This document shows, piece after piece, positions 19,489 to 21,678 of a DNA stretch of 64,000 nt. Both the position numbers and the translations under genes were made by a program. Numbering within the stretch: the stretch's first letter is position 1; each line of letters opens with the position of its first letter. The stretch is from Escherichia phage ZCEC14. The notes beneath the pieces are model-generated. The model did no database searches and was not told the DNA's origin. It saw only the letters and a program-made list of their open reading frames with translations. The stretch lies in the sequence record OP168898.1, one strand, 5' to 3'.

Positions 19489-19517
19489 GTCTAAATACCA
19501 TGTAATAAATATATCTA

Positions 19518-19525
19518 TATTTATA
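19518..19525 (-). promoter_or_regulatory. Late promoter TATAAATA (minus) upstream of uvsW
   Basis: tatttata on + strand about 30 nt upstream of uvsW start. Confidence 0.4.
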
Positions 19526-19538
19526 CTGAGGAAATATT

Positions 19539-20219
19539 ATGATAGATAAAGATTATATTGCAGAGCTGAAGGCTCTTGATGATAATAAAGAAGCTAAAGC
19601 TAAATTAGCTGAATACGCTGAACAGTTTGGTATAAAGGTCAAAAAGAATAAATCTTTTGATAATATCGTTGTTGATATTGAAGAAGCCCTCCAGAAGCTC
19701 GCTAGTGAACCTATGCCGGAGACTGATGGGTTATCTATTAAAGACTTAATTGATGCTGCTGATGCTGCAGAGGGATTAAAATATGACGATGAAGAAGTCA
19801 ATCCAGAAGCAGCACTTCTGATTGATTCTCCGGTTAAATCTGACATTAAAATTGAAGTAGTAGAAACGGATAAAATTCCTGAAAATACTGATATTTTGAT
19901 TGAAGATACTCCCTTTGTTGAAGAAAAATTTGAACAGGCTGTATCTGAGATTATTGAATCTGAAAAGCCGTCTGTATTTACTCTTCCGGAAAACTTTAGT
20001 CCGAATCTTCAGCTGATTGGAAAAAATCCAGGATTCTGCACTGTTCCTTGGTGGATTTATCAATGGATCGCTGAAACTCCGGATTGGAAATCTCACCCAA
20101 CTAGTTTTGAACATGCGTCAGCACACCAAACTTTATTTAGCTTAATTTATTACATTAACCGTGACGGATCAGTTTTAATTCGTGAAACACGCAACTCTTC
20201 TTTCGTAACATTAAAATAA
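19539..20219 (+). CDS. inh: Inh-like inhibitor of prohead protease (226 aa)
   Basis: Length and position as in T4. Confidence 0.75.
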   Translation: MIDKDYIAELKALDDNKEAKAKLAEYAEQFGIKVKKNKSFDNIVVDIEEALQKLASEPMPETDGLSIKDLIDAADAAEGLKYDDEEVNPEAALLIDSPVKSDIKIEVVETDKIPENTDILIEDTPFVEEKFEQAVSEIIESEKPSVFTLPENFSPNLQLIGKNPGFCTVPWWIYQWIAETPDWKSHPTSFEHASAHQTLFSLIYYINRDGSVLIRETRNSSFVTLK

Positions 20220-20228
20220 GGATAACTT

Positions 20229-21646
20229 ATGGCTTTTACAGTTGATATAACTCCTAAAACACCTACTGGAGTTATAGATCAGACTCAGCAGTTTACTGCT
20301 ACACCCAGTGGTGAAACTGGAGGCGGAACTATTACCTATGCTTGGAGCGTAGATAATGCTCCCCAAGAAGGATCAGCAGCAACTTTTGATTATGTATTAA
20401 AAGGACCTGCTGGTCAAAAAACTATTAAGGTAGTTGCAACAAATACTATTCCTGATTCTGAAGCTGAAACAGCTGAAATTAGTACAACTATCACAGTTCA
20501 AAATAAGACACAAACGACTACCTTAGCCGTAACTCCTAATAGTCCTCCGGAAGGAGTAATCGGAACAGCTATTGAATTTACTGCCGCTTTAGCTTCGCAG
20601 CCACCAGGTGCATCTGCTACGTATCAATGGTACGTTGACGGTTCTCCTGTGGGCGAAGCAACTTCTGCTACATTCAATTACACTCCTGCCGAAAGCGGGG
20701 TAAAAAGAATTAAGTGTGTGGCTCAAGTAACCGCAACAGATTATGATGCAAAAGAAGTTACTTCTAATGAAGTGTCACTGACTGTTAATAAAAAGACACA
20801 GACAACTACTTTGGCAGTAACTCCTGATAGTCCTTCAGCTGGAGTAATTGGAACCCAGTTCAATTTACTGCTGCCTTAGCTTCTCAACCAGTTGGAGCGT
20901 CTGCTACGTATCAGTGGTATGTAGATGATTCACAAGTTGGTGGAGAAACTAACTCTACATTTAACTATACTCCAACTACAAGTGGAGTAAAAAGAATTAA
21001 ATGCGTAGCCCAAGTAACTGCTGAAAATTACAATGAAAAGGAAGTTACTTCGAATGAAGTATCATTAACGGTTAATAAGAAGTCAATGAATCCACAGGTT
21101 ACATTGACTCCTCCTTCTATTAACGTGCAGCAAGATGCTTCGGCTACATTTACAGCTAATGTTACTGGTGCACCAGAAGAAGCACAAATTACTTATTCAT
21201 GGAAGAAAGATTCTTCTCCTGTAGAAGGGTCAACTAACGTATATACTGTTGATACCTCATCTATTGGAAGTCAAACTATTGAAGTTACTGCAACTGTTAC
21301 TGCGGCTGATTATGATAGCAAAACTATTATAGCAGAAGGTCAAGTTCAGGTAACTGATAAAGTTGCTCCGGAACCAGAAGGTGAATTACCTTATGTTCAT
21401 CCTCTTCCACACCGTAGCTCAGCTTACATCTGGTGTGGTTGGTGGGTTATGGATGAAATCCAAAAAATGACTGAAGAAGGTAAAGATTGGAAAACTGAAG
21501 ATCCAGATAGTAAATACTACCTGCATCGTTACACTCTTCAGAAGATGATGCAAGATTATCCAGAAGTTGATGTTCAAGAATCACGTAATGGATACATCAT
21601 TCATAAAACTGCTTTAGAAACTGGTATCATCTATACCTATCCATAA
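20229..21646 (+). CDS. hoc: Hoc-like outer capsid decoration protein with an extra Ig-like repeat; reading frame interrupted at a C-run (20854-20856), giving track ORFs 20229..20879 and 21086..21646
   Basis: N-terminus close to T4 Hoc as recalled; 3 Ig-like repeats plus C-terminal capsid-binding domain; +1 frame continues the repeat across the break. Confidence 0.75.
20503..21083 (+). repeat. Tandem direct repeat of about 290 bp (two diverged copies), each encoding one Ig-like domain of Hoc
   Basis: Copies begin aataagacacaaacgactacc / aaaaagacacagacaactact and end gttaataaaaag / gttaataagaag. Confidence 0.75.
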
Positions 21647-21650
21647 TCAT

Positions 21651-21678
21651 AAGGGGCTTCGGCCCCTTTCTTCATTTT
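21651..21678 (+). terminator. ggggc-ttcg-gcccc hairpin followed by T-rich tract
   Basis: Directly after hoc stop. Confidence 0.55.

Follow-up and report, generated by a model that had tools for sequence, protein, structure and literature searches.

The stretch of DNA analysed here (hereafter, the window) comprises 64,000 nucleotides of the genome of Escherichia phage ZCEC14 (sequence record OP168898.1), a member of Tequatrovirus that is about 97% identical to phages Sf22 and RB3 over 25 kb. Positions 20229-21646 of the plus strand are occupied by hoc, the gene of the head outer capsid (decoration) protein, which is present in a four-Ig, 472-aa type and is interrupted. The gene had been recognized as hoc in an earlier note that was made from the letters of the sequence, and database comparison confirmed this assignment. 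When the interruption is repaired, the translation matches T4 Hoc (PDB 5vf3_Z) with E = 7e-216; residues 1-106 of the repaired product align with residues 1-106 of the T4 protein, and residues 189-472 align with T4 residues 93-376. The repaired protein is 96% identical to the intact Hoc of phage BF15. The location between inh and 24.3 is also the expected one, the gene order uvsW - inh - hoc - 24.3 - 24.2 - rnlB in the window being the same as in RB3. Since the ZCEC14 sequence is identical enough to the solved T4 Hoc, structure prediction was unnecessary. The features of the locus are collected in Table 1.

Table 1. Sequence features of the interrupted hoc gene of phage ZCEC14 (positions in the window)
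Feature	Position	Strand	Remarks
SD-like AAGGA	20218..20222	+	6 nt 5′ of the hoc ATG; overlaps inh stop codon (20217-20219); read from the sequence
Upstream ORF, 216 aa (frame 0), UVD33389.1, 'hypothetical protein'	20229..20879	+	In ORF list; without capsid-binding domain
Ig-like domain 1 (aa 1-92)	20229..20504	+	Alignment to T4 Hoc residues 1-106
Repeat unit 1, extra Ig-like domain (aa 93-188)	20505..20792	+	Tandem Repeats Finder; Pfam BiPBP_C and Ig_2 stretches
Repeat unit 2 (aa 189-284, repaired)	20793..21079	+	Pfam PKD, residues 195-267; T4 residues 93-188
CCC run, 1-nt deletion site	20854..20856	+	Codon 209 of the 472-aa form, codon 113 of T4 Hoc
Premature TAG, frame 0	20877..20879	+	ORF list and three-frame translation
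Ig-like domain 4 (aa 285-376, repaired), equivalent to T4 domain 3	21080..21355	+	Pfam Ig_3/I-set, residues 289-373; T4 residues 189-280
Downstream ORF, 186 aa, UVD33390.1, mis-named 'deoxynucleoside kinase'	21086..21646	+	In ORF list; Ig4 and capsid-binding domain
C-terminal capsid-binding domain (aa 377-472, repaired)	21356..21643	+	Near-identical to 5vf3_Z residues 281-376
Intrinsic terminator, AAGGGGCTTCGGCCCCTT followed by a T-rich tail	21651..21678	+	Strong hairpin 21651-21668, 3′ of hoc

As can be seen from Table 1, the GenBank record divides the gene between two ORFs, neither of which is named hoc. The preceding gene, inh (window positions 19539-20219, UVD33388.1), is mis-named 'endolysin' in the same record, and the annotation of ZCEC14, including this naming of inh, has been criticised previously (PMC12031403). 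The annotation of the locus can now be corrected, the two mis-named ORFs being one broken hoc gene, a correction that is of little import alone. The hairpin that follows the gene is also known from phage UFV13, where it is given as the terminator of hoc (PMC5931544). Upstream of inh, the gap that separates it from uvsW (19489-19538) does not contain the segE homing-endonuclease gene that RB3 has there, and no match to ipI, Ip5 or e.2 of RB3 was found in the window. All four are of the sort that is usually mobile or variable among T-even phages.

The repaired product consists of an N-terminal string of four Ig-like units of ca. 92-96 aa each, two of which form a tandem repeat, and of a C-terminal domain that is almost identical to its T4 counterpart. 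In Hoc, this domain (T4 residues 281-376) is responsible for capsid binding and attaches to the gp23 hexamer (PMC10385173). Pfam models PKD, Ig_3 and I-set matched the repaired product above the cut-offs; BiPBP_C also matches.

The tandem repeat was delimited by Tandem Repeats Finder to positions 20505-21082 (period 287, 2.0 copies, 76% matches, score 671). The earlier description of two diverged units of roughly 290 bp, each encoding one Ig-like domain, is accurate: the units are 288 nt long, unit 2 being 287 nt in ZCEC14 due to a 1-nt deletion, and they are identical at 218 of 288 nucleotides (76%) and at 77 of 96 amino acids (80%). Codon differences between the units are synonymous in 39 cases and non-synonymous in 19, which indicates that both units have been under purifying selection and that the duplication is old. 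Domain 2 of RB3 is matched by unit 2 at 95 of 96 residues and by unit 1 at 76 of 96. Given the former match and the alignment to T4 residues 93-376, unit 2 is orthologous to T4 domain 2; unit 1 is the extra, more diverged copy of that domain.

The size of the repaired ORF, 472 aa as compared to 376 aa for T4 Hoc, was likewise given correctly in the earlier note: the former figure is obtained upon insertion of one C, and the latter is the length of 5vf3_Z. The repaired protein does therefore have one more Ig domain than T4 Hoc, as had been proposed, but ZCEC14 is not peculiar in having it. Intact 1419-nt (472-aa) hoc genes are found in BF15 and G2540, and an intact 472-aa Hoc is also encoded by RB30, whose record (AY101183.1, from 2002) carries a repeat_region feature stating that an 'intragenic repeat led to appearance of additional immunoglobulin-like domain'. 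At least 148 phage records contain the junction of units 1 and 2 (80-nt probe, at least 80% coverage), the 1419-nt type makes up about 20 of the 49 full-length hoc matches in an evenly spaced sample of Tequatrovirus genomes, and Hoc proteins of 472 aa form many clusters in protein databases, some of them with dozens to more than 100 members. Among close relatives, Hoc makes up a copy-number series of 376, 472 and 568 aa (21 loci of relatives from IMG/VR were used for the range of Hoc lengths only). In phages UGKSEcP1 and UGKSEcP2, Hoc (568-570 aa) contains three tandem 96-aa domain-2 units. Both the extra Ig domain and the duplication were thus already known.

In length and architecture (Ig1, two domain-2 units, Ig4 and the C-terminal domain), the repaired ZCEC14 protein is the same as Hoc of the RB30 type (AY101183.1/AAM52483.1; BF15, QXN75880.1; G2540, QBO63417.1). 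The RB30-type genes are intact, whereas the ZCEC14 copy is split by the loss of one C at codon 209. T4 Hoc (PDB 5vf3, 8t1x) is an orthologue with the same gene position and very high identity in the aligned parts, but it has one domain-2 unit and three Ig domains, in contrast to the two units and four Ig domains of the ancestral form of the ZCEC14 gene.

In the deposited sequence, no single open frame links the Ig domains with the capsid-binding domain. Three-frame translation shows that the Hoc frame resumes at position 20855 in the -1 frame and is open through the stop codon at 21644-21646; the hoc start codon is in a different frame from the capsid-binding domain. Alignment of the site reveals GGAA-CCCAGTT in ZCEC14 versus GGAACCCCAGTT or GGAACCCCGGTT in SHFML-11, BF15 and PST. 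The run consists of three Cs in ZCEC14, of four in 11 of the 12 relatives fetched and of five in one. At the corresponding site, T4 Hoc (5vf3_Z) has GTPVQF, just as stated in the earlier note, which placed the frame break at a shortened C run; both statements hold, as do the other coordinates and numbers of the note. The missing C is the sole coding-sequence indel relative to the intact hoc gene of BF15, and when one C is added back, the 472-aa Hoc is obtained with no other defect. A 31-mer carrying the CCC run had no exact match in IMG/VR. When a 151-base query (20780-20930) was compared with a phage collection from which the ZCEC14 record is absent, all of the 60 best matches listed spanned 152 or 153 bases. 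The deposited sequence truly contains the frame break, which is seen in that record only; as deposited, hoc is a pseudogene or a split gene. Hoc null alleles are a known type of event, and the ZCEC14 frameshift is an ordinary, though new and previously unremarked, instance of it.

The product of the upstream ORF has native Hoc sequence in residues 1-209 (Ig1, Ig2 and 21 residues of Ig3), which are followed by seven out-of-frame residues, QFNLLLP, and the TAG. The ATG of the downstream ORF is preceded solely by a weak, badly (closely) spaced SD-like sequence, TAAGAAG. No late promoter of the form TATAAATA was found on the plus strand inside hoc, and the 186-aa ORF, when looked up as an exact protein among assemblies, retrieved no match. 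At most, traces of a 186-aa, one-Ig mini-Hoc might be made from this weak internal ATG. An architecture of this kind (one Ig domain plus the capsid-binding domain) occurs naturally in other phages (PMC10385173).

In our opinion, hoc in the sequenced ZCEC14 stock is probably a genuine loss-of-function allele, which would result in capsids devoid of Hoc. We infer that the deletion took place in the phage rather than during assembly, that slippage was the mechanism and that the virions are without Hoc. Most simply, one C would have been dropped from CCCC at codon 209 through replication slippage, thereby shifting the frame, and translation from the hoc start would terminate seven codons after the shift. 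The 216-aa product would keep the N-terminal Ig domains and lose the C-terminal domain, which provides attachment at the centre of the gp23 hexamer, and so would not be displayed. Since the C-terminal domain is out of frame, the product should be unable to attach, and the ZCEC14 virion is expected to be Hoc-less. T4 hoc null mutants are fully viable (PMC3012670) and show normal laboratory growth, and for this reason a hoc-null allele should have been tolerated during isolation and propagation of the phage.

One has to consider that the hoc gene of the phage itself may be intact, with CCCC and a 472-aa product, and that one C was missed in the deposited consensus. Homopolymers are the classic site of consensus and assembly errors, and the lesion is a single-base homopolymer difference that is private to OP168898. 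In addition, one base suffices to restore a protein as similar to BF15 Hoc as stated above, with nothing else defective, and the annotation of the record is poor (see also PMC12031403). Even so, we find such an error unlikely on several grounds, the first of which is technical. The chemistry of Illumina sequencing seldom miscounts runs of 4 nt. The ZCEC14 genome (165,622 bp, OP168898) was read as 150-nt paired ends on the Illumina MiSeq platform, and SPAdes gave a single contig (PMC10873995; the paper contains no mention of Hoc). With MiSeq reads and a SPAdes assembly, a homopolymer error is unlikely.

The second line of evidence comes from the rest of the window. Among the 75 RB3 proteins that match it, hoc is the sole broken gene. 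Each of the other 72 homologues contained entirely within the window (56.1 kb; two of the 75 matches are cut by the window ends and were left out of this count) gave one full-length, stop-free HSP, i.e., there is no second frameshift in the 56.1 kb of coding sequence tested. Homopolymer runs of at least 4 nt number 1,170 in the window and those of at least 6 nt number 61, and no tested gene containing them is frameshifted, even though the 61 longer runs would be far more error-prone than a C4. The probability that a single random error or indel falls in hoc is ca. 0.025. An error-prone platform and/or several frameshifts across genes irrespective of whether these are essential, which would be the signature of an artefact, were not found, while one isolated error is still compatible with these data. 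That the tandem repeat led to a misassembly was examined as a separate possibility and rejected: identity between the units is no more than 76%, and hoc genes of the three-Ig type, which are free of the duplication, are frameshifted likewise.

The third line of evidence is provided by other T-even phages. In the evenly spaced sample of Tequatrovirus genomes, hoc is frameshifted in 5 of the 49 full-length matches (BCPSen_003, PM105, NHEP10, FN and CE1). Control genes sampled in the same way were frameshifted in 0 of 48 (portal gene gp20), about 1 of 50 (alt) and 0 of 52 (uvsW) matches, together 1 of ca. 150; the excess in hoc (Fisher p = 0.016, hoc versus gp20 and alt pooled) comes from small samples, which is a caveat for the null-allele interpretation. 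Of the controls, gp20 is essential, alt is dispensable and uvsW is a neighbour of hoc. Within 50 kb (ca. 50 genes) of CE1, and likewise of BCPEco_001, no gene other than hoc is frameshifted. The frameshifts of other records are thus concentrated in hoc instead of being spread across control genes, which favours mutation, since errors that are blind to function would not cluster in one dispensable gene. It also has to be kept in mind, as a point against a genuine null allele, that the ZCEC14 lesion lies in a homopolymer and that the allele is present in one record only, whose careless annotation lowers trust in it.

The large terminase gene gp17 of CE1 (ON229909.1, 37487-40339) consists of two parts in the same frame separated by an insertion of ca. 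1 kb with a 600-nt ORF; the cause of the split is presumably a mobile element, as opposed to a frameshift.

The hoc indels are mostly of one nucleotide, gained or lost, in short homopolymers; those of SHFML-11, PST, NHEP10, BCPEco_001, FN, CE1, PM105 and BCPSen_003 are all of this type. A G4 to G5 change at codons 13-14 is shared by PST, SHFML-11, BCPEco_001 and BCPSen_003. Another site is an A tract in the SGVK(K/R)IKC motif of the domain-2 unit, which reads GTT AAA AAA ATT (A7) in some alleles, A8 in NHEP10 and FN, and A6 in CE1, T2 and PM105; T6 has an extra base there, as does unit 1 of PM105. At this site, the ZCEC14 units have A5-G, from which it follows that this hotspot is not where the ZCEC14 gene is broken. 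At codon 209, the C run is shortened by one in ZCEC14 and lengthened by one in BCPEco_001, whose hoc gene contains two frameshifts, the C5 run being one of them; this combination looks like the decay of a dead gene. Among the records examined, BCPEco_001 is the only one besides ZCEC14 in which this run varies, and it does so in the opposite direction. ZCEC14 can be compared with T2, T6, CE1, FN, NHEP10, PM105, PST, SHFML-11 and BCPEco_001, as well as with T4 amber and deletion mutants, in that a dispensable decoration gene is inactivated and the genome is otherwise intact, but its C4 to C3 change lies at a site other than that of most hoc nulls (the A tract and the G run).

A split hoc gene is also seen in the RefSeq genomes of T2 (NC_054931.1, 105000-107400) and T6 (NC_054907.1, 106000-108700). 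The T6 gene has a +1 change at the A tract. In T2, the tract is A6 and the gene has two further deletions, of 11 and 2 nt, which give it the appearance of an old pseudogene. T2 capsids are not known to carry Hoc. A search of the literature yielded no usable statement on T2 or T6 lacking Hoc or on hoc being a pseudogene, and it is the split RefSeq genes that serve as evidence here.

A further possibility, and in our estimation an improbable one, is that hoc of T-even phages is a mutational ON/OFF gene, in which short homopolymers in the Ig repeats yield Hoc-less subpopulations appreciably often. The switching tracts would be the A tract of domain 2, the G run at codons 13-14 and the C run. Their slippage would be reversible, Hoc-ON and Hoc-OFF phages would occur side by side in the population, and the consensus would have caught the OFF state. 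If that were true, the CCC of ZCEC14 would represent a captured OFF state of a bet-hedging display of a capsid adhesin and not a dead end. In line with this scenario, C3, C4 and C5 alleles exist at the C run across records (this being variation between phages), the other hoc frameshifts described above are in homopolymers too, and hypermutable homopolymers were reported for T2 and T4 in a preprint (bioRxiv 10.1101/2025.10.21.683753). However, candidate loci are defined in the methods of the preprint as runs of at least 6 nt, and neither the CCC of ZCEC14 nor the CCCC of its relatives reaches the tract length of a contingency locus. The domain-2 units of ZCEC14 have A5-G and not A7, the C5 allele resides in a gene already dead by an upstream frameshift and so resembles decay rather than switching, and the T2 gene, with its several further deletions, is irreversibly lost. 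For hoc of T2, T4 and T6, the supplementary tables of the preprint contain 6-nt runs only, with essentially no variation, and they leave aside the hoc indel sites found here (bioRxiv 10.1101/2025.10.21.683753). As in the phage contingency loci of Gomez, Barrick and Waters, a change in homopolymer length frameshifts a T-even gene in ZCEC14; unlike the 3-4-nt ZCEC14 run, which is seen in a consensus only, the contingency loci are at least 6 nt long and their reversible variation was measured in reads.

It is most improbable that near-full-length Hoc is restored by -1 ribosomal frameshifting within the 46-nt overlap at 20831-20876, where a -1 shift at any point would give a full-length product and where one single-codon re-pairing site, T TTA (20864-20867), is followed 8 nt downstream by a hairpin (20876-20952, -30.2 kcal/mol, z = -2.3 versus shuffles), since the P-site codon AAU is unable to re-pair in the -1 frame and every relative encodes Hoc in a single frame. 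A search of the overlap for a canonical heptamer X XXY YYZ in the zero frame retrieved none, and programmed -1 frameshifting was rejected, as only T TTA and the hairpin are present in place of a slippery heptamer. The hairpin sequence is also found in intact alleles, with no sign of selection for the hairpin, which is therefore probably incidental.

Of the three explanations between which the earlier note did not choose, a pseudogene is thus the best supported one; a sequencing error is disfavoured by the Illumina/SPAdes data, by the lack of a further frameshift in 57.5 kb of coding sequence and by the excess of frameshifts in hoc across records, and phase-variable display is weakly backed. 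A genuine hoc-null allele may matter for the use of the phage. Hoc mediates the adherence of T4-like phages to mucus and to the mucin MUC2 (PMC11853027). If the deletion is real, ZCEC14, a candidate therapeutic phage, would be Hoc-less and, because of this role of Hoc, may persist differently on mucosal surfaces. The presence of a frameshifted hoc gene in about one tenth of the sampled deposited Tequatrovirus genomes is an only mildly interesting by-product of the analysis that may merit a survey: either hoc is readily lost while phages are enriched and propagated on laboratory hosts, or phages without Hoc are common in nature.

In the window as a whole, the T4 late-promoter motif TATAAATA was seen 22 times, as compared to 9.3 occurrences expected by chance. 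These motifs are mostly located 5′ of structural genes, on the minus strand.
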